A stretch of 64,000 nucleotides of DNA from a virus (Duplodnaviria; Caudoviricetes), in IMG/VR virus record IMGVR_UViG_3300032030_000005, positions 224,001-288,000 of that record; one strand, 5' to 3'. The position numbers and the translations under genes are program-made. Shown one piece after another: positions 2,569 through 19,770 of this stretch. The first letter of the stretch is position 1. The number at the start of each line of letters is the position of its first letter. The notes under the pieces were generated by a model that saw nothing but the letters and a program-made list of their open reading frames with translations, ran no database searches and was not told the DNA's origin.

Positions 2569-2874
2569 ATGATAATTTCAGTAAAGTATGTCGAAGACAT
2601 CAAGATCAGCAGAAGAAAGATGAAGGAAATAAGAAAATATCTGGAGGACAACTCAATTTATTATATTGAGAATATTGAAGGATTTTTATTTAGTCCTTAT
2701 CTAAAGACCAAGGTTAATGAGAATTTAGAATTCTGTAAGAATAAGATTAATTTACCATATGTATCTTATTCAGATGATGTCTACAAAGGTTATTTAATCA
2801 GTAAGAAGTTTTTAAAAGAAACTGAACTGGTTAAAAAGATCAATTCTAATTATAAAAAGGAATTTATATTATGA
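2569..2874 (+). CDS. hypothetical protein
   Basis: ORF; ATGA-coupled to nrdG. Confidence 0.65.
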   Translation: MIISVKYVEDIKISRRKMKEIRKYLEDNSIYYIENIEGFLFSPYLKTKVNENLEFCKNKINLPYVSYSDDVYKGYLISKKFLKETELVKKINSNYKKEFIL

Positions 2875-3389
2875 ATTACAGCAAGATATATTATATTGAT
2901 ACAATCAATGGCGAGGGGTTAAGAGTATCACTCTTTACTTCTGGATGTACAATCCATTGTAAAGGTTGTTTCAATAAGGAAACATGGGATTTTAACCATG
3001 GTGAATCTTTCACTAAAGAAGAGTTAGAAAAAATAATTAATACTATTTTTAATGATAAAGGTATTAATTATAGTGGTTTATCTTTATTAGGTGGAGAACC
3101 ACTTGATAATATTGACGGTCTTATTCCGTTACTAAAAGAGTTTAAGAAGAAAAACAAAGATAATAAAAAAGATGTATGGATTTGGACCGGGAGAACTATT
3201 GATTATGTAAACTCTAATGAAAAGATGAAGAACTTCTTATTAGAATACTGTGATGTAGTAGTTGCAGGTCCATATATTGAAGAAGAGAAAAACTTAAAGT
3301 TAAGATTTAGAGGAAGTAATAATCAAAAAATTTATCTAATTAAAAATAATCACTTTATTGAAAGTGAAGAGTTAGAAAAAGGGGTATAA
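2871..3389 (+). CDS. nrdG: anaerobic ribonucleotide reductase activating protein (radical SAM)
   Basis: NGEGLRVSLF, CTIHCKGC, LLGGEPL, FRGSNNQ. Confidence 0.93.
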   Translation: MNYSKIYYIDTINGEGLRVSLFTSGCTIHCKGCFNKETWDFNHGESFTKEELEKIINTIFNDKGINYSGLSLLGGEPLDNIDGLIPLLKEFKKKNKDNKKDVWIWTGRTIDYVNSNEKMKNFLLEYCDVVVAGPYIEEEKNLKLRFRGSNNQKIYLIKNNHFIESEELEKGV

Positions 3390-3393
3390 TACT

Positions 3394-3933
3394 ATGAATA
3401 TTTATGAAAATATTAAGGATGTGAATGTAAGCTTTGCGGATGGTATAATTAATAATCCTTATCTATTAAGTATTGTTAAGAATTACAATAAGGCAATAAA
3501 AGGCTTTTTAGAAAGTAAGTCAACAACTGTAAGTGAATTTGAAGATGATTATCTTCTTAAGGATGATATCATTGAAGAATTAATCACTGAGAAACTTAAG
3601 AAAAATATGTTTTATGAATCAGTTGATAGAAAAGATATAGCTGCTATAAAGAAACTTATTAAGGAATATTTCAGTGAATATAAACAGCAGATTTACAAGG
3701 ATTCTTTAAAATATCAGAAGAAACGTTTTGGTATAAGATATAATGAGTTTAAGATCACTACTATGCATGAATTATATAAATTTGGTAATGATCCAGAAAT
3801 GTTAAATATCATTATACCAAATAATGCATTCTTCTATTTAAAGGTAATCGATAGATTATTAGTTTATTATTGCAAAAAGGTAATAGATAGGAAAGAAGAT
3901 TTAAATAAAGTTGAATATATTAAAATAAAATAA
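3394..3933 (+). CDS. hypothetical protein
   Basis: 179-aa ORF in operon. Confidence 0.7.
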   Translation: MNIYENIKDVNVSFADGIINNPYLLSIVKNYNKAIKGFLESKSTTVSEFEDDYLLKDDIIEELITEKLKKNMFYESVDRKDIAAIKKLIKEYFSEYKQQIYKDSLKYQKKRFGIRYNEFKITTMHELYKFGNDPEMLNIIIPNNAFFYLKVIDRLLVYYCKKVIDRKEDLNKVEYIKIK

Positions 3934-5910: not shown

Positions 5911-6534
5911 TTATATTTCTAATATGGAATCATCATAAGTATTATTATTCATATCGATTAATTTATTATATTTAAGTAAAGTTTCTTCAGCTATAAAGTC
6001 TTTATACTTTCCAATAAATGCATTTACATCTCCAAAGATGCTTTCAAGTTTAATAAATATCTTTTCACAATGTACTAATTCATGAGCTGTTTTAGATAGA
6101 TAAACAAGACCTACTTGATTTAATTTATGAAGCTCTAATACTTCATCACATATATCTAATGAAGTAAAATTTTCTCCAGTAAGTATTCTTTTATTTATAC
6201 AAGTTTCTACTATATCATATAATGTAAATGGATAATGATGAAATTCTAATGTTAATCCATCAATATCATCTGAAAGATTACCTAATACAGAACAGTTATG
6301 AATACCTACTTCATTTTTAAGATGTCCTAAATAAGACTTATATTCTTTAGAAGTTCTTATCTGTTTTTCTATATTCTTAATAAAAGCTTTAATTTCTTTA
6401 GCATCTGACCATTCTGTAAAATAAAAACTACCTATAATATTTTTACTATTACCTTTAGTAGCTAATACTACATCATCACCTTTATTTAATGAAATAACAT
6501 TATTCACTTCATTTGGTTTATTAATTTGTTTCAT
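5911..6534 (-). CDS. HNH-like jumbo-phage protein
   Basis: LEFHH...VGLVYLSKTAHELVH beta-beta-alpha-metal-like pattern; late promoter at 6560-6571 (-). Confidence 0.5.
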   Translation of the reverse strand: MKQINKPNEVNNVISLNKGDDVVLATKGNSKNIIGSFYFTEWSDAKEIKAFIKNIEKQIRTSKEYKSYLGHLKNEVGIHNCSVLGNLSDDIDGLTLEFHHYPFTLYDIVETCINKRILTGENFTSLDICDEVLELHKLNQVGLVYLSKTAHELVHCEKIFIKLESIFGDVNAFIGKYKDFIAEETLLKYNKLIDMNNNTYDDSILEI

Positions 6535-6643
6535 ATAAATATTCACTCCTTTATTATAATAACTTGCTGTTTTTAAATATATATTATTTTTGTGACTGTA
6601 TTAAGACAATAAAAAATTTAAGAAAAGGAGGAATACAGTTGTT

Positions 6644-7024
6644 ATGAAATACACATATCCTACAGAAGAACTTATGAACAAAGCTTTCGATCAGGCAGTA
6701 TGTGGTTCTTTTGGAACATTTTTAGATGGTGTTTATCTTAAAGCATGCTATGCAAATGGTTATGGCTTTGAGATTGTAAAACATAAAGGTACGTATGGCT
6801 TAGAGCCGGATCTTTGGGAGCTTTACGTACTTAAAAAAGTAGAAGATCCAGAGGAGTATGATATCGAAACAAGATACACTGCCAATTATGAGACGGATAT
6901 AACTGATGATGTTGTTCCATCATTAACTAATGAGCAGGTAATGCTCGTTATACCATTAATAAGATGGTTAGATGATAGAGGTCAGCTTCCGGAAGGTACA
7001 AACCTTCCACATTTTTTAAAATAA
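6644..7024 (+). CDS. early hypothetical phage protein
   Basis: Early promoter 6580, RBS AAGGAGG. Confidence 0.75.
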   Translation: MKYTYPTEELMNKAFDQAVCGSFGTFLDGVYLKACYANGYGFEIVKHKGTYGLEPDLWELYVLKKVEDPEEYDIETRYTANYETDITDDVVPSLTNEQVMLVIPLIRWLDDRGQLPEGTNLPHFLK

Positions 7025-7028
7025 TAAT

Positions 7029-7068
7029 AAAAGAGAATATACCAAATGGTATATTCTCTTTTTTTTTT
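7029..7068. terminator. bidirectional terminator
   Basis: AAAAGAGAATATACCA/TGGTATATTCTCTTTT. Confidence 0.85.
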
Positions 7069-9748
7069 ATAAAAATCTATCTTTCATTCTGACTTTTGTT
7101 AATTCTAAATTATTATCAATAAGATAATCATGTAAATTATCATTTGGTGTTAATTTACCACTTTTTAAATCGTTATTTAATTGCTTTTTTACAGAAGTTT
7201 GATACATATAATCTTTAGTCATAAAAGGAGTCATAAATCGTCCATTAACACCAAAGTCTTTTGTAGTAGGTTGATATTTATCATCAACTATTATACAATG
7301 TTTCTTTATCATATCAATAGTCATGATAAATTTATCAACTTTTGCATATTTGATAGAATCTTTTCTTATTGTAATACAGTTTGGTGTATTTGAAGAATGC
7401 CCTAATCCTAATTCCATATCACTATCTAATTTAATAGTATAAATATAAAATTCCAATAATTTTTTATCATAGTTATTCAAATTATCTTTTAAATAATTAA
7501 ATACTGATTTAGTTATAATAGGATTTTGAGAGTTTTTACATCCCATATGTGTTATATTACTATCTACTTTTTTTAAAGTTTTTAAAACTTCAAAACATCC
7601 CCATCCAATAGCTGAATTATATTTAGTCCAAGTAAATAAAGAAAAGCCTTCTTCCTGAAATACATTACCAAAATCTAAACCAACAGATTTTAATTCTTTA
7701 TAATAATTTTTAGAAGCATGATAAACTTTTATAGGACTGTTAATGGTTTCATGTAAAGCTCTTCTTACAGATCTTTTAAAATCATACTTTTGTTTATTAA
7801 GATCCTTTATATAATCTCGACTTCGTTTAATTTCTCTAAAGATATCTTCGATTAAAGGTCGTCCGTCTGGTCTATCTCTCTTTATTCTTCTGATACTTGC
7901 CTGTAAATCACTAGTACCCATTATAATTAAAGGAAGTGTTACCGCTTTTTCAGGAGACATTAAACAAATATTACAACCTTCAAATATAAACTTTTTACTT
8001 CTATATTTAGGATTATTTTTAGTATTATCTAATAACCAATCAAAAAATTTAATCCAAAGTTTATCAGCTTCTGAAGAATCATATCTAATTTGCCATGGTA
8101 ATTCAGGATGTTGGTTAATATAATCTAATATTATTCCAGTTCCTCTTATATTAATTAATCTAGATAATAATTTTTCATATTTTTCTTTTGGTCTGGTTAT
8201 TCTTAATAAAAATAAATCTAAATGAGAAACATATGCATCATATTCTTCTCCTAATTTCATAGAATAAGTACTTTTACCATCACCGCTTGACCCAGTAATC
8301 CAAAGAGGATTTCCTTCTCTCCATTGATCCACGTTTATAGCAAAGTTCTTTTCAGGAATAACTAAAGATTCATTATATGTATTGATTAATTCATTATAAT
8401 TATCTCTATTATTTTTACCAAATAATTCCATAGACTTCTGATCGGAAAGCCTTTTTCTTCGATCATCCATAGAATCCCAGTTCTTCATGACTCTTTCAAG
8501 TTCTTCCTTAGAAGGTTCTTTATGTATTAACTCTATACCAGTTTCAGCTCTCCATTTATGAACTGGATCATTTTTAAGCTTTAAATATATATCATTTCCA
8601 TAATTCTTTTTAATATCTTTTAGATTCATAGGTGGTTCATAGTCTTCATGTAACTTTATACCTTTTTGCTTGATAACTTCATCGAATCTAGTCTGTGGGA
8701 AAGGTTTCTCGTCTAATTCTACTTCACCATCATCATTTATATAACCAAAACCATAACACATATCAAAATGGAAATTAACCATCATATCTCCAACTGTATA
8801 TACATTATCTCTTCCAACTAATTCACTGAATGGATCTATTAAGATATTAGTATCTTTATTTAATACTACAGTATGCTCATATTTATCAGCACTTACTGGT
8901 CTATAAGGAAGTTTTTTGTATGATCCAGACTTAGAAGGCTTAGTTTGCTTCCATCCTATAAGCTCTTCATCTCTTGCTATTTCTGGCATTTGTACGAACT
9001 TCTTAATAGCTTCTAGATTTACATCATACATCTCTTTCATTGAAAGATTCTTATATTCTGGATATCGGTTAAAGAATAATTTGATATAGTGTTTATATTT
9101 TTGTACGTCCTTCTTATTATGTTCTAATAATCTATCAAAATCCTTTTTATTAAAGCTATCTATATTTTCTTTATCAAATTGTTCTTTTTTCTTTAACAGT
9201 TCTTCAAGATTTATAGGAGTATGACTATCCGTCCAGCAATCTAAGTGATTTTCTTTTTCTGAATCCATATATACTCTTTCACCATGAATATGACCATGTA
9301 CATTAATCTTAACTTTCTTATATTTCTTAAGCATTAATGGTTTGTGACTAAAGATAATATCTTTATATTGTAATTCATCAAATACATAATTAAATCCTAA
9401 TGATAAATAATAATCATTATCTTTAAAATCATGATTACCTTTAATAAGTATCTTTATACCATTTAATTGATTATAAAAATATCTAATTAAGTTATCATAA
9501 TCATCTGATAACTTTTTATATGAAGTATCACCCATATATATGAATATATCATTAGGCTTTACTTTAGCTTTTTGCTGAATTATTAATCTCTTTAATTCTA
9601 ATTGTGATTGTTTACCTTTTGTATAGGCATCTTTATAAATATGCCAGTCGGTAGCTAACCATATTCTATTATATGGAGTTCTATCTAAAAGACTCTTCAC
9701 GTAGTCTTCTTGACTTACATTTTCATTAAAGAAATCTATATAATCCAT
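7067..9748 (-). CDS. multidomain protein: calcineurin-like phosphoesterase + two unknown domains + P-loop kinase + ADP-ribosyltransferase-like domain; putative virion-packaged polyprotein
   Basis: TDWH, GD, GNHD, SH, HGHIH; GSSGDGKST and FIFEG; KVYHAS; RBS AGAGGTG before MDYIDFFNE. Confidence 0.7.
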   Translation of the reverse strand: MDYIDFFNENVSQEDYVKSLLDRTPYNRIWLATDWHIYKDAYTKGKQSQLELKRLIIQQKAKVKPNDIFIYMGDTSYKKLSDDYDNLIRYFYNQLNGIKILIKGNHDFKDNDYYLSLGFNYVFDELQYKDIIFSHKPLMLKKYKKVKINVHGHIHGERVYMDSEKENHLDCWTDSHTPINLEELLKKKEQFDKENIDSFNKKDFDRLLEHNKKDVQKYKHYIKLFFNRYPEYKNLSMKEMYDVNLEAIKKFVQMPEIARDEELIGWKQTKPSKSGSYKKLPYRPVSADKYEHTVVLNKDTNILIDPFSELVGRDNVYTVGDMMVNFHFDMCYGFGYINDDGEVELDEKPFPQTRFDEVIKQKGIKLHEDYEPPMNLKDIKKNYGNDIYLKLKNDPVHKWRAETGIELIHKEPSKEELERVMKNWDSMDDRRKRLSDQKSMELFGKNNRDNYNELINTYNESLVIPEKNFAINVDQWREGNPLWITGSSGDGKSTYSMKLGEEYDAYVSHLDLFLLRITRPKEKYEKLLSRLINIRGTGIILDYINQHPELPWQIRYDSSEADKLWIKFFDWLLDNTKNNPKYRSKKFIFEGCNICLMSPEKAVTLPLIIMGTSDLQASIRRIKRDRPDGRPLIEDIFREIKRSRDYIKDLNKQKYDFKRSVRRALHETINSPIKVYHASKNYYKELKSVGLDFGNVFQEEGFSLFTWTKYNSAIGWGCFEVLKTLKKVDSNITHMGCKNSQNPIITKSVFNYLKDNLNNYDKKLLEFYIYTIKLDSDMELGLGHSSNTPNCITIRKDSIKYAKVDKFIMTIDMIKKHCIIVDDKYQPTTKDFGVNGRFMTPFMTKDYMYQTSVKKQLNNDLKSGKLTPNDNLHDYLIDNNLELTKVRMKDRFL

Positions 9749-9774
9749 AATATCACCTCTTTTCAATCTTAAGA

Positions 9775-10386
9775 TTAAGACTTGTTAACGGTACTATATA
9801 AATTAGTATCTCTCCACATATCATAATGTCCTTTAGCTTCTGTATCCCAATATTCACCACTACCATGAATATGACCATGTATATTAATATTGTATATAGA
9901 TTGACATACATAAGTTTTAGTAAATCTACGGTAATTCCAAAAATAATTACTATCAACAATAGGACGTTTTGATGTTAGATTTTTATCCCATATGGCTGGT
10001 AGATGAGTGAATACTATATTCTTATAAGTCAAATGATCTACTATATAGATGAATCCACATTCTTTATAATAGTTATCTGATAATATATCATGATTCCCTC
10101 TTACTAATATTTTTTTAATAGGTAAGCTTTTAAAAAAGATTTTAATCTTTTCATTTTGCTCTAGTGTACAGTCTACATGATCAATATCTCCTAAGACTAT
10201 TAGTATATCATCATTTCCTAATTTTTTACATTCATTAAAGAATTTATCCATTTTTACTTTAGTATTAAATGGTTTTTTATTTCTACATTCATTCTTATAG
10301 AAATGTAAATCGGTTGCCATATAAATTTGATTAGGTTTTTCCCCACTAACAAATGTTATGGCATTTTGTAAATCATTGTCTATCAT
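9775..10386 (-). CDS. calcineurin-like metallophosphoesterase
   Basis: TDLH, LGD, GNHD, TH, HGHIH motifs; paralogous to the N-terminal domain of the downstream gene. Confidence 0.85.
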   Translation of the reverse strand: MIDNDLQNAITFVSGEKPNQIYMATDLHFYKNECRNKKPFNTKVKMDKFFNECKKLGNDDILIVLGDIDHVDCTLEQNEKIKIFFKSLPIKKILVRGNHDILSDNYYKECGFIYIVDHLTYKNIVFTHLPAIWDKNLTSKRPIVDSNYFWNYRRFTKTYVCQSIYNINIHGHIHGSGEYWDTEAKGHYDMWRDTNLYSTVNKS

Positions 10387-10473
10387 TCTTATCACTTCCC
10401 TTATTATAAGATAAATATAATTAAAAGTTGTAAACCGTATTAAACGCATATTCTATTTATATATTATAATTGT

Positions 10474-11005: not shown

Positions 11006-11033
11006 TAATTATATAAAGAAAGGATTGATATAT

Positions 11034-12225
11034 ATGAATCAAACTGAAGGATTTATTGTTTGTGAAGAGTTTACAGCTTCTACACCATCTATTTTAGCAG
11101 ATGATAATAAATCTATTGTGTTTGAAGCTACTTTACAAGAAGCTGATGCACCTAATAGAAATAAGCGTATATATGGTAAAGATGTATTATCTGAAGCTTT
11201 AAATAATCCTACTGTTAGAGAAAAGATAGCTCATAAAGCTTTCTATGGTGAGGCTGGACACCCTCTTTCTACAGATATAAAACGCCAAGCATATATAGAT
11301 CAACATAATATAAGTCATATTGTATGTTCTACAAAATGGGAAGGTAATATTCTTAAAGGCATTGTAGAAACAGCACAAACTAGTACTGGTTTTGACATGA
11401 GAGGTTTAATTAGACAAGGTTCACAAGTATCATTTTCATTAAGAGCTCTTGGTAATATTATTAAACCAGATGGTCAATATCAAAGAGTCTTTGGTCCTTT
11501 AATGATCATTTGTTACGATTGGGTCGGCTCTATCATAAGATAAATAATTTGTGGCTCAATTAAAACTCCTTTAATTGCTGGAACGTCCTATAAATGGGAT
11601 AATCAGCAGCCAAGACTTAAAAGAAGACTTCATTCGTAAGATGTCTTTTTTTTTTTAAGTAAGGTTCAACGACTATCGAAACCATAGGTTCTAAAAAGAA
11701 CTGAAGAAGGGAGTAGAGTACCGCCTAAGCGATTGAGGTTCTGGTGTAGAGTAATAATCTAGTAATTCCAGATTAAAGGGAAATGGGGAGCAGCATGTAT
11801 TAGCCATATACATCTGAAGATATAGTCTTATCTATACAGTAATGTATAGCTGTTTAATATAAACGTATATAGTGTAGCGAACTATATAGAAAAGGAATAA
11901 ATGCACAATTCCATCTCATGATAAAGCATATATGGGAAAAATTATTTCTGAAGACTTTAATAGATTAGAACAAAATGGAATTATTACAGAAGGTCTTATT
12001 AACTTTAAAATGGCTGATTTAGCTGAATATGTAATGCAACAGGATAATAAGCTTAGCTGTATTTGTGAATCATTAGGATTTAATATAGATAGTGATTTCT
12101 CTAATGTAGATGTAGATAGACGTAATAAGTTATTATCTATTAAAGAAGGTAATGAAACACTTAAATTATTCTTAAAGAATTCAGTAGTAAATAATATGGA
12201 TAATTATTTCAAGTATAAGTTTTAA
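11034..12225 (+). CDS. prohead core protease (T4 gp21-like); exons 11034-11524 and 11904-12225, 270 aa spliced
   Basis: NRNKRIY, GEAGHP (His), SFSLRALG (Ser); splicing restores YDWV|TIPSH (D-x-V-x-x-P-S) in frame with the 11932 ORF. Confidence 0.9.
11525..11903 (+). ncRNA. group I self-splicing intron, no ORF
   Basis: P4 TGCTG(11576)/CAGCA(11604); P7 GACTA(11671)/TAGTC(11823); P1 exon ATTGGGT with IGS GCTCAAT giving U.G at the 5' splice site; P10 TTGTG/CACAA; terminal G at 11903. Confidence 0.95.
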
Positions 12226-12350: not shown

Positions 12351-13364
12351 ATGAATTACAGAGATCTTATTTTAGAATCTTATCTCGAAGATAATGATTA
12401 TGAAGCATATGATGAAGAATACGATGATGCATATGATGAATATGATGAAGATGAAGAATATGAAGCATATGACGAAGAGTATGATGATGATGAAGCACTT
12501 GAAGCATACCTTGAAGGTTACTACTATGCATTAGAATCATTAGATGATCGTAGAGCTGACGGTTCTGTAAAGTACTATTCGTATAATAAGAAGGGTAAGC
12601 AAGGTGCTGAAGTTACAAGAAACGTAGATGCTGATGGTAGAGTTTACTATACTAATGCAAAGGGTAAGAGACTTAAGGATGGCGTTTCTGTAAAGGCTGC
12701 TATTAATAAGGGTAAGGGCGAATTCGGCGTTGGTACAGTTACAAGAAGCAAAGCTGCAATTCAGAAGGATATTAAGGATACAGGCAATCGTGTTGCTAGC
12801 GGTGCTTCAAAGAATACTGGTATTGCTAATGCTTCTAGATCACAAGGTAATATTTCTAAGACTGCTGAAACTGCAAGAAATGCTGAGTTTGCTGCTAAGA
12901 ACAGAGAAGATAATCTTAAGAGACAGCACAGAGCTGAAAAGAAAGAACTTCAGAATAGACTTGCTAGAGCTAATCAGGAAATTACTAACTCAAGAGAATA
13001 TGGTTTCAAGTCTGGTGAACGTTCAGGCTATGAAAAGGGTAATACTGCTGGTACTAAGAAGGGCCGTGCTCAGGGTGCAGCTGTTGCCGGTGGTGCAGCT
13101 TTAGCTGTTGCTGGTGGTGTAGCTGCTGCAAAGGCTATTAAGCTTGATAAGGAATATAAGGCTTATACAGCTGCTGGTGGTAAGCTTTCTAAGAAGGAAT
13201 GGTTATCAAAGGGTAAGCCATCACCATCTGTTGTTGAAAAAGCTGTAGCTAAGATCAAGCATGAAGCATATAATGAAATCGCTGATATGGTTTATGAAGA
13301 TGCTTTAAATGAAGGTTATGAACTTGCTATTGCTGAACTTTGTGCTGAAGAAGATTATGAATAA
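12351..13364 (+). CDS. putative internal head/ejected protein with acidic propeptides and glycine-zipper segment
   Basis: MNYRDLILE, acidic N- and C-termini with repeated xLE/xNE, basic core, GAAVAGGAALAVAGGVAAA; late promoter. Confidence 0.65.
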   Translation: MNYRDLILESYLEDNDYEAYDEEYDDAYDEYDEDEEYEAYDEEYDDDEALEAYLEGYYYALESLDDRRADGSVKYYSYNKKGKQGAEVTRNVDADGRVYYTNAKGKRLKDGVSVKAAINKGKGEFGVGTVTRSKAAIQKDIKDTGNRVASGASKNTGIANASRSQGNISKTAETARNAEFAAKNREDNLKRQHRAEKKELQNRLARANQEITNSREYGFKSGERSGYEKGNTAGTKKGRAQGAAVAGGAALAVAGGVAAAKAIKLDKEYKAYTAAGGKLSKKEWLSKGKPSPSVVEKAVAKIKHEAYNEIADMVYEDALNEGYELAIAELCAEEDYE

Positions 13365-18718: not shown

Positions 18719-18810
18719 AAATTAAAAGTAAAGGATATTATCCTTTACTTTTTTTTATAAATTCAACAACTATTTATACTTTTTTAATAAATAATAAAGA
18801 GGTGAATACA

Positions 18811-19770
18811 ATGTCTGAATTAACTACTAAACAGAAAGATTCATTTGATGATTCTGTTTTTGGAGTTCCAGAATTAAGGAAATTTCCATTAAATGATAGA
18901 GAACATGTGTTAAAAGCCATTCAATTTTTTCATCATTGTCCTTTAACGTATAAAAAAGAATTAGCTAATAATATTAATAAAAAAGCTAAAGAATATAATA
19001 TTTCTATATCCAAATCATCTAATATATATGAGTATTTAAATGAAGAAGAACAATATGAAATAGATTTATTTGAAGATATTCATTTATTAGAAGATTCATT
19101 ATTATTTACAGAAGCTTTTGGTATGAATGAACAAGAAGCTAAAGGTTGTGTTGATACAGCTATCAATATGTGGAAAAAAAGAAAATCATTTATAAAAACT
19201 TATAAAGATAAACAAGTTTTATTAACTGATATAAGAAATGAAAAAATGATGATTGATAGTTTACAAAGATCTGGTGATTATAATGGTATCATTTTAAGAG
19301 CCAAAAATTCAGCTAATAAAATGAATACTTCTATTAATAAGCGTAATAATCAAACAGTTCAAGGATCTAAGAATAATGGTAGAGTTATGGGAAATCCTAT
19401 ATTCCAACGAAGAAATACAGCTTTTGGTGTTGGTGCTGCAACTCTTGTAGGTGCTACAGTAGCAGGTGGTGCTTTAGGTAAAGCAAGTGCTAATAAAAGA
19501 AATAACGGTCGTTTAGTTACTAAAGCTAAAGTAGGTGCAGGTGCTGTTGCCGGTGCTGCAGTTGGTAATGTAGCTGCTATGGCTGCTATGGGAGCAACTG
19601 CTGGACATCAGGAAAGACAAAAGAGAATAGCAAGAGATCCTAATGCTCCATTACAACAATATGCTAATAAATATGCTAACTTTATTAGTAATTTCCAAGG
19701 AGAAATTCTTGAATTACAACCTAATGTTGGAGGTCAGCAAAATCAGCAAGAAGGAGAAGGTGAAGATTAA
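18811..19770 (+). CDS. late protein with DUF6582-like N-terminus, xxE-rich linker and two glycine-zipper helices
   Basis: ELTTKQKDSFDDSVFGVPELRKFPLNDREHV; YLNE/LFED/LLED/FTEA; GAGAVAGAAVG. Confidence 0.6.
   Translation: MSELTTKQKDSFDDSVFGVPELRKFPLNDREHVLKAIQFFHHCPLTYKKELANNINKKAKEYNISISKSSNIYEYLNEEEQYEIDLFEDIHLLEDSLLFTEAFGMNEQEAKGCVDTAINMWKKRKSFIKTYKDKQVLLTDIRNEKMMIDSLQRSGDYNGIILRAKNSANKMNTSINKRNNQTVQGSKNNGRVMGNPIFQRRNTAFGVGAATLVGATVAGGALGKASANKRNNGRLVTKAKVGAGAVAGAAVGNVAAMAAMGATAGHQERQKRIARDPNAPLQQYANKYANFISNFQGEILELQPNVGGQQNQQEGEGED

Follow-up and report, generated by a model that had tools for sequence, protein, structure and literature searches.

The window analysed here is a 64,000-nt stretch of an IMG/VR phage record of 305,865 bp (IMGVR_UViG_3300032030_000005), which comes from an uncultured jumbo phage, and the subject of this report is one gene within it that encodes a polyprotein of several enzyme-like modules. 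On the minus strand, an open frame of 899 codons extends over 7067..9766 (-) from a TTG at 9766, and the gene itself occupies 7067..9748 (-), with ATG 9748 as its start and 893 codons followed by a stop. A Shine-Dalgarno sequence (AGAGGTGA, 9753..9760 (-)), read directly, lies 4 nt 5' of this ATG. The open reading frame is real, and the 893-aa protein that the initial annotation of this DNA had placed at 7067-9748 is confirmed, ATG 9748 being preceded by a good ribosome-binding site; in our collection of sequences the protein is recorded as P0002 (893 aa). Residue numbers follow the 899-aa frame used in that annotation.

The chain opens with a 9-residue tag, MDYIDFFNE (residues 7-15, 9722..9748 (-)), which ends in the first of several sites made of a hydrophobic residue, any residue and Glu (h-x-E). 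The tag is followed by a calcineurin-like metallophosphoesterase (residues 16-206, 9149..9721 (-)), assigned from PF00149, phrog_547 and structure matches, and by a domain termed D2 (residues 207-374, 8645..9148 (-)), which is composed of a helical arm and an alpha/beta subdomain and ends in LHE374. Next come a six-helix module, HEL (residues 375-466, 8369..8644 (-)), ending in YNE466, a P-loop kinase-like module, KIN (residues 467-673, 7748..8368 (-)), ending in LHE673, and a C-terminal module, CT (residues 674-899, 7070..7747 (-)), which resembles ADP-ribosyltransferases (ART). The gene of a head maturation protease, the proposed processing enzyme (11025..12225 (+)), lies 1.3 kb from the polyprotein gene on the other strand. 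We think it fairly probable that the product is a head-packaged polyprotein, cut by the prohead protease into four injected enzymes.

Sequence comparison indicates that the protein is a string of independent modules. The blocks that the query shares with relatives in BLAST comparisons are 7-379/388, 361/371-467, 458/464-674/676 and 678-898, and 24 proteins of 574-1501 aa share only such blocks with it. An exhaustive HMMER search with query residues 216-899 gave 556 matches; the 150 of these that were listed, in proteins that measured 82 to 2424 aa, each held one block, which could lie anywhere in the chain. When five query segments were mapped onto 168 proteins, from about 170 metagenomic relatives, the modules were found to be reordered, duplicated and deleted, with up to four KIN or two CT copies per protein. 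Thus P0133 carries four KIN modules, P0035 reads CT-CT-KIN, P0036 CT-KIN-CT, P0026 HEL-KIN and P0004 KIN-CT. GNAT domains are added in many relatives and DUF6582 in one; the latter is a module inside the related polyprotein P0022 (382-439), and close to the head-tail joining gene, a window gene (18802-19770 (+)) also matches it weakly at its N-terminus. Each module also occurs alone, behind an N-terminal peptide of 5-20 residues that ends in h-x-E. The homologous domains are therefore shuffled in other proteins with the same kind of Glu-ending junction, as the initial annotation had suggested should be checked. With at least two unrelated enzymatic domains in one phage polypeptide and mosaic architectures among its relatives, the protein is in these respects like polyvalent proteins.

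The same exchange is seen between phages at one locus. P0003 occupies the syntenic locus of a related phage and has a different module set. Such a syntenic locus in a related phage (L004, a 26-kb JGI 3300037400 contig) carries homologs of the window genes 55-1167, 2871-3389, 3394-3933 and 5911-6546, and its polyprotein, which is ended by the contig edge, reads GNAT…HEL…X-KIN-CT, a module set that differs from that of the query. HEL, KIN and CT had no match in 50,697 GenBank phage records, and searches of PDB sequences, Pfam and NCBIfam with the HEL, D2 and CT sequences gave nothing.

Across the 168 proteins, D2 always follows the phosphoesterase (P0005, P0006, P0008, P0009, P0124, P0161 and P0169), and P0169 (374 aa) and P0161 (372 aa) consist of this pair alone. 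Because the two domains always travel together, the polyprotein is best divided into the tag (7-15) and four units: phosphoesterase plus D2 (16-374), HEL (375-466), KIN (467-673) and CT (674-899). The calculated masses of the four would-be products are 43.0, 11.2, 24.5 and 26.3 kDa, and that of the intact chain is 106 kDa. The release of about five enzymes, as originally proposed, is thus not retained, since the phosphoesterase and D2 are inseparable and the fifth site, LLE215, was rejected as described below.

The sites FNE15, LHE374, YNE466 and LHE673 are all present and all coincide with module edges, as defined by the homology blocks and by two AlphaFold2 models. A single h-x-E site means little because 23 such loose triplets occur in the protein; the weight of the junction evidence comes from conservation across relatives. 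The residues found before module starts in relatives are YFNE/E, KLNE/E, YLNE/S, IYNE/S, INE/STILE/T and VTE/S (the slash marks the junction), and stand-alone modules begin with MNWSEYFNE/S, MNYLQFLTE/N, MDYITE/S, MKTIQEFDIVNE/S and MIYGNYFLNE/I. The h-x-E triplet was counted from position -9 to +3 of each aligned module start. It was detected at 53/59 KIN starts, 17/19 CT starts and 44/83 HEL starts, the background frequency being 0.31; moreover, at least 90% of 51 KIN modules retain E466. A strict motif drawn from the relatives, [LIVMFYW][NHTDM]E[STNDE], occurred 17 times in 32 inter-module segments, compared with 3.1±1.7 in shuffled sequences, and the query contains it at four sites only, 15, 374, 466 and 673. 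As the genome-wide density of this motif is 0.30 per 100 aa, its count in the query is ordinary and only its placement is unusual. Motif density per gene across the genome did not single out the genes around the protease. The possibility that N-E-S at the junctions represents a glycosylation sequon was rejected, the variants HE/T, TE/N, DE/S and NE/E not fitting it.

Comparison of two relatives shows how exact the junctions are: P0003 reads ...ENDPMKYLNE/S-KIN-...ELNE/S-CT and L022 reads ...ENDPMKYLNE/S-CT, so that the kinase module was lost exactly between two junctions. Exchange precisely at these points, with an identical junction context before different modules in two phages, would be expected if the junctions were mainly DNA-level recombination linkers for module exchange, without a role for a protease. 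The junction is degenerate, however, except for its hydrophobic-x-Glu core (YNE, LHE, VTE, LDE, IME and others), which points to selection on the peptide and not on a nucleotide string, and the N-terminal tags are left unexplained by such linkers. As a main explanation we consider recombination highly improbable; it is compatible with proteolytic processing rather than exclusive of it.

Placement of the sites was evaluated with AlphaFold2 run on two pieces of the protein, residues 666-899 and 7-472. Modelling of the whole protein was given up: in a 102-row composite alignment MAFFT had stacked CT fragments under residues 151-654, and alignments A3 and A4 likewise misplaced D2 rows. The CT model (666-899) had a mean pLDDT of 90.5 and a pTM of 0.85, and the tag-to-HEL model (7-472) a mean pLDDT of 88.1 and a pTM of 0.69. 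In the former, pLDDT stays below 50 over residues 666-677 and the fold begins near 680, which places LHE673 in a linker. In the latter, residues 7-17 are below pLDDT 50, indicating that the tag is disordered, and E374 sits in a 14-residue coil (block pLDDT 62, neighbouring blocks 73 and 87). The last HEL helix ends with E466, and beyond it confidence falls to 62. LLE215 falls within the first helices of D2, inside helix 207-216 (block pLDDT 92 and 96), and is kept in none of the seven relatives that share the region (0/7; ILNKNK, PLNDYK and others). It was rejected as a junction on both counts. The h-x-E sites had been reported to fall at the apparent domain boundaries, and the initial annotation recommended that domain edges be compared with them in predicted structures. 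This placement stands for sites 15, 374, 466 and 673 and fails for LLE215; in the models, 15, 374 and 673 lie in low-confidence coil, 466 ends a helix and 215 lies inside one.

Two further kinds of sequence were noticed at module boundaries. Acidic spacers of about 30 residues (…DPEDYE.IHDH..DEDDI[YF]NE/S), with two flanking h-x-E sites, are present at N-terminal or inter-module positions in P0019, P0020, P0021, P0022 and P0032. They resemble excisable peptides, and their style is like that of the EGYYDALNE tags of the query genome. In P0092, P0097, L016 (1100-1310) and L018 (920-1045), the sequence H-x-G-[VI]-x-G-[MQ]-[KR]-W-G (for example HYGVKGMKWG and HHGIIGQKWG) stands ahead of HEL or KIN in place of the h-x-E tag, and perhaps represents another type of N-terminal or processing element.

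The same architecture could also belong to an uncleaved polyvalent protein, that is, one 106-kDa chain, either delivered or cytoplasmic, whose Glu-ending linkers are kept by descent and from which the tag at most is removed. There are well-described polyvalent proteins of 2-15 domains, and N4 vRNAP, ArdC and TraC1 are transferred unprocessed (PMC5512222); known giant-phage prohead proteases take off N-terminal propeptides only (PMC10052503); and the motif is not depleted inside modules. However, a Glu at the exact module edge is the one nearly invariant feature of the linker, ahead of three unrelated modules, and the same h-x-E closes the short N-terminal peptides of stand-alone modules, where a linker is needless. 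Tandem sites (INE/STILE/T) and the acidic spacers with two sites also look like excised peptides. An uncleaved chain is thus unlikely in our judgement, though it deserves more credit than the other alternatives.

Processing in the head, which we favour, is further suggested by the tag. Relatives begin with MNYRDFFNE, MNWSEYFNE and similar sequences, and a near-identical tag, MNW[SN]EYFNE, heads the KIN-first P0004, the HEL-first P0045 and the CT-first L022. When the pattern M[NDTSK][YWF]..[LFYIM][FILMY].E was sought in the open frames of the genome, 8 occurrences were found, compared with 0.56 in shuffles, most of them at the starts of open reading frames. Three copies head genes located directly downstream of the protease (window positions 12351, 13447 and 14422). 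A targeting tag cut at FNE15 had been proposed initially, and the proposal gains support from the membership of the 9 residues in a tag family found repeatedly at gene starts in this genome, and from the tags of like form ahead of stand-alone modules elsewhere.

The protease belongs to the T4 gp21 family. Its gene is split by a group I intron at 11481-11849 (Rfam RF00028, 75 bits), and exon 1 (11025-11480) matches PF03420 Peptidase_S77 with 35.6 bits for a cut-off of 27; the protease also matches phrog_207. An S77 protease is present in 3/3 complete IMG/VR jumbo genomes that contain KIN relatives. The major capsid protein is encoded outside the window (genome C1:289969-291771 (-); Pfam Gp23 family, 25.9 bits). 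Several h-x-E triplets occur within 90 residues of its N-terminus, and RLNE/T and ILTE/S, just before the conserved GVQP, are candidate maturation sites; no cut site could be assigned among these several N-terminal triplets.

The phosphoesterase is the one module to which the library scans gave a name. PF00149 matches residues 34-215 with 35.5 bits for a cut-off of 21.5, phrog_547 gives 8.8e-23, and the metal-binding motifs are all present (DWH 40-42, GD 79-80, GNHD 110-113, H141 and HGHIH 157-161). The calcineurin-like assignment made from sequence inspection is thereby upheld, by a family score above cut-off and a full motif set. In structure comparisons the VIA Z scores were 14.0 for Aquifex AQ665 (1xm7), 11.2 for LpxH, 9.0 for the P. 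putida PdeM-type nuclease MPE, 8.8 for MJ0936, 7.3 for lambda phosphatase and 7.1 for the C. thermocellum Pnkp phosphatase. The NCBIfam PdeM model matched with 1.4e-9, which is below the family cut-off.

D2 was modelled with pLDDT 82-98, and the EHTVVL and LIDPF motifs that had been noticed before are located in it at 297-302 and 309-313. The sole non-phosphoesterase entries among the best 50 structure matches are weak ones over residues 214-375: 3c9q (human C8orf32, Z 6.4), LapG (4fgo, 6.2) and SseI (4g29, 6.1), which we take to share a papain/transglutaminase-like fold. Conservation in D2 is 6/8 for H298, 8/8 for D311 and 5/8 for C337, and no Cys is consistently kept. As a weak lead, D2 could be a degenerate or permuted peptidase or deamidase. 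It was rejected as the polyprotein's own or a general processing peptidase, since most relatives with the same junctions are without D2, which is found in 8 of about 170.

HEL corresponds to the small helical domain already noted at this position, and in the model it is all-helical, with six helices and pLDDT 87-98. It occurs, at any position, in 96 of the relatives listed and had no Pfam match. Stand-alone HEL proteins of about 90 aa, all named hypothetical, are also present in metagenome-assembled genome (MAG) records of candidate phyla, such as P0179 and P0181 (~90 aa), which are annotated in Parcubacteria and Patescibacteria MAG records. Either HEL extends well beyond this phage group or those MAG bins hold phage contigs.

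In KIN, the Walker A motif GSSGDGKST lies at 492-500, and K498, D517, E596, R627 and R630 vary little or not at all across 51 KIN modules (alignment A2). P-loop kinases of the AAA_33, APS-kinase and polynucleotide-kinase kind have an Asp some 19 residues beyond the P-loop Lys, and lid arginines. Pfam AAA_33 matches 50/51 of these members, the best with 5.9e-8; the query alone gave nothing above a cut-off. PDB profile matches to KIN span the P-loop alone, including that of the C. thermocellum Pnkp kinase (E 0.011, P-loop region only).

The ART-like module CT contains Y682-H683, G700-N701, S709, Y774, Y776, R801, R843 and D852. YHAS is found at 682-685, and CT relatives conserve a YH[GA]S motif as well as Y774/Y776. 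ARTs of the H-Y-E clade have a His on strand 1, a Tyr on a central strand and a catalytic Glu before strand 5. The Foldseek and VIA lists for CT were almost wholly of ART fold with weak scores (best Z 5.2, best E 0.02), and included pertussis S1, LT and cholera A, Tpt1, Arr, diphtheria toxin, PARPs, DarT, ParT and RES toxins. In BFVD, CT matched unnamed viral proteins with E 1.7e-5; DarT and ART-PolyVal-like entries ranked lower, those named ART-PolyVal-like with E 0.016-0.26. The ART-PolyVal family itself matched one CT relative (E 0.0076), and of the Pfam hallmarks of polyvalent proteins, MuF, LPD families, ART-PolyVal and MPTase or other built-in peptidases, none matched the query at E up to 1. 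The Glu expected in ARTs (E-x-T-[VF]-R) is present in 7/26 CT relatives and also in the distant CT modules of P0124 and P0023 (hhalign 93% and 92%); the query's CT branch has N796-C797 where other branches keep it. Of the designations given to the modules at first reading, that of phosphoesterase holds and those of kinase-like and ART-like probably do, at the level of fold or family.

The combination of a kinase, a metallophosphoesterase and a Tpt1/ART-like fold is reminiscent of Pnkp-type repair, and the protein could be read as an intracellular multi-domain enzyme outside the virion, an RNA end-healing or nucleotide-signal-degrading kit made after infection, in which the likeness of the tag would be coincidental. 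PNK, calcineurin-like phosphatases and KptA are indeed known from jumbo phages (PMC7824862), and C. thermocellum Pnkp is among our matches with both its phosphatase and, for the P-loop only, its kinase. Like the query, that enzyme joins a P-loop kinase and a binuclear metallophosphoesterase in one polypeptide, and both of its domains are among the weaker matches. It differs in that the query is without a ligase module and has another domain order, and the query phosphoesterase is structurally closer to AQ665, LpxH, PdeM and MJ0936. For CT, Tpt1 chains gave Z 5.2, 3.7 and 3.2, over the NAD lobe only. The Tpt1/KptA family has an Arg-His-Arg-Arg catalytic tetrad. In place of the R-H pair of Tpt1, CT has Y682-H683; R801 and R843, both conserved, are at most possible counterparts of the Tpt1 arginines.

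Further evidence goes against such a kit. All three activities occur together in P0006 alone among the 168 proteins, the partners being as often GNATs or extra kinase copies. RNA_ligase (PF09414) and RtcB (PF01139) were not found in the genome in searches with working controls; the search for the Rnl1-type PF09511 was uninformative, its controls being silent. Members of the tag family occur at N-termini significantly more often than expected and are grouped next to the protease, and the query's CT branch is without the ART Glu. A Pnkp-like end-healing kit, as the initial annotation had envisaged, is therefore no more than a weak idea: its parts are not co-inherited, neither RNA_ligase (PF09414) nor RtcB was found in the genome, the phosphoesterase is closer to other families and the query CT lacks the Glu. 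The broader reading as a non-virion enzyme appears quite improbable.

The proposed route of the polyprotein rests largely on analogy with phage T4. There, gp21 cuts after L/I-X-E, a 10-residue capsid-targeting sequence (CTS) suffices to load foreign proteins into heads, and Alt, an ART, is CTS-packaged and then ejected (PMC9026906). Like the T4 CTS cargo (IPI, IPII, IPIII and Alt), the query has at its true N-terminus a short peptide ending in hydrophobic-x-Glu, its phage encodes a gp21-family (Peptidase_S77) protease, it includes ART-like cargo as in Alt, and its tag is portable among unrelated proteins. The T4 cargo, in contrast, consists of single proteins that lose terminal propeptides, while the query combines one tag with four modules and three further sites. 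We found no T4 internal protein homologous in sequence to the query, whose packaging is inferred. By this analogy, the tag would act like a CTS and take the entire precursor into the core of the prohead; there the prohead protease would cut after E15, E374, E466 and E673, freeing four products inside the head; and these would be ejected along with the DNA, to act ahead of phage transcription. Because the modules follow one tag and the Glu-ending linkers fit the head protease, one tag probably loads several injectable enzymes.

Similarities also exist with the giant phages phiKZ and SPN3US. Their gp175 and gp245 systems involve a gp21-like protease that cuts after the Glu of a three-residue motif, and phiKZ-like phages eject many head-internal proteins into the host. 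Their motif is A/S/G-x-E, unlike that of the query, and N-terminal propeptides are removed, sometimes stepwise (PMC10052503). With the polyvalent proteins described by Iyer, Burroughs, Anand, de Souza and Aravind in 2017 (PMC5512222), the query shares several unrelated enzymatic domains, mosaic architectures, ART and GNAT parts, and a proposed role as effectors delivered with DNA. That text, however, makes 0 mentions of calcineurin-like or P-loop kinase domains, and has processing done by peptidase domains that the proteins themselves contain, with no part for prohead-protease linkers. If T4 Alt and the ART and GNAT domains of polyvalent proteins are a guide, the released modules may be host-takeover or counter-defence enzymes. 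The company they keep in relatives, GNATs, extra kinases and extra ART-like modules, matches the takeover and counter-defence repertoire of polyvalent proteins and jumbo phages.

As to expression, the upstream gene (9775..10386 (-)) was recognized in library scans as a stand-alone paralog of the polyprotein's phosphoesterase domain. Its stop, at 9775-9777, is so close to the polyprotein ATG, which lies 26 nt past it, that both genes form one operon. This paralog probably starts at ATG 10386, with the Shine-Dalgarno sequence AAGGGAAG, rather than at 10449. Upstream of the operon, at 10429-10418, there is an AACT-N6-TA motif like that of AR9 late promoters, and sigma-70-like promoter matches were at chance level (31 vs 33.6). 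Directly after the polyprotein stop, a bidirectional terminator (7029..7062), a perfect hairpin with a 15-bp stem and T-runs on both strands, separates the polyprotein gene from the convergent gene 6644-7024 (+).

Several observations weigh against processing in the head. The AACT-N6-TA sequence is the operon's sole late-promoter hint, and it is a short motif in AT-rich DNA; moreover, the polyprotein gene is on the strand opposite to the head genes. HEL junctions carry the h-x-E motif in just 53% of cases (44/83), the strict motif was defined after the data were seen, and E466 is modelled as a helix end and not as free coil. Module interiors show no motif depletion (KIN 12 vs 20.1, CT 10 vs 9.1); avoidance inside folded modules was seen in HEL alone, whose sequences are not independent. 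Selectivity of cutting would therefore rest on accessibility alone. The co-occurrence of S77 proteases with KIN discriminates little because these proteases are common in large myoviruses. Finally, the prohead-protease cuts mapped in SPN3US remove N-terminal propeptides and none frees several enzymes, the exception to propeptide removal being the C-terminal autocleavage of the protease itself (PMC10052503).

In the literature on polyvalent proteins and on giant-phage proteolysis, we came across no account of a prohead protease that resolves a multi-enzyme precursor. A 9-residue tag combined with Glu-ending junctions could make this protease a resolvase for cargo polyproteins, a new packaging logic in jumbo phages by which sets of injected enzymes (phosphoesterase, kinase, ART-like, GNAT, HEL) could be assembled, swapped and dosed, stand-alone tagged modules and polyproteins being two states of one combinatorial system. 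To this wider proposition we give even chances. If the junctions are cut, the portable capsid-targeting sequence of T4 and the polyvalent effector proteins, so far described separately, would be joined in one system, in which one tag loads several enzymes at a fixed 1:1 stoichiometry and the head protease releases them. The system would also show, as a model taken from nature, how a single construct could load several foreign proteins into a phage head, and a large module family, so far known from metagenomes only, would become a source of candidate early host-takeover or counter-defence enzymes.

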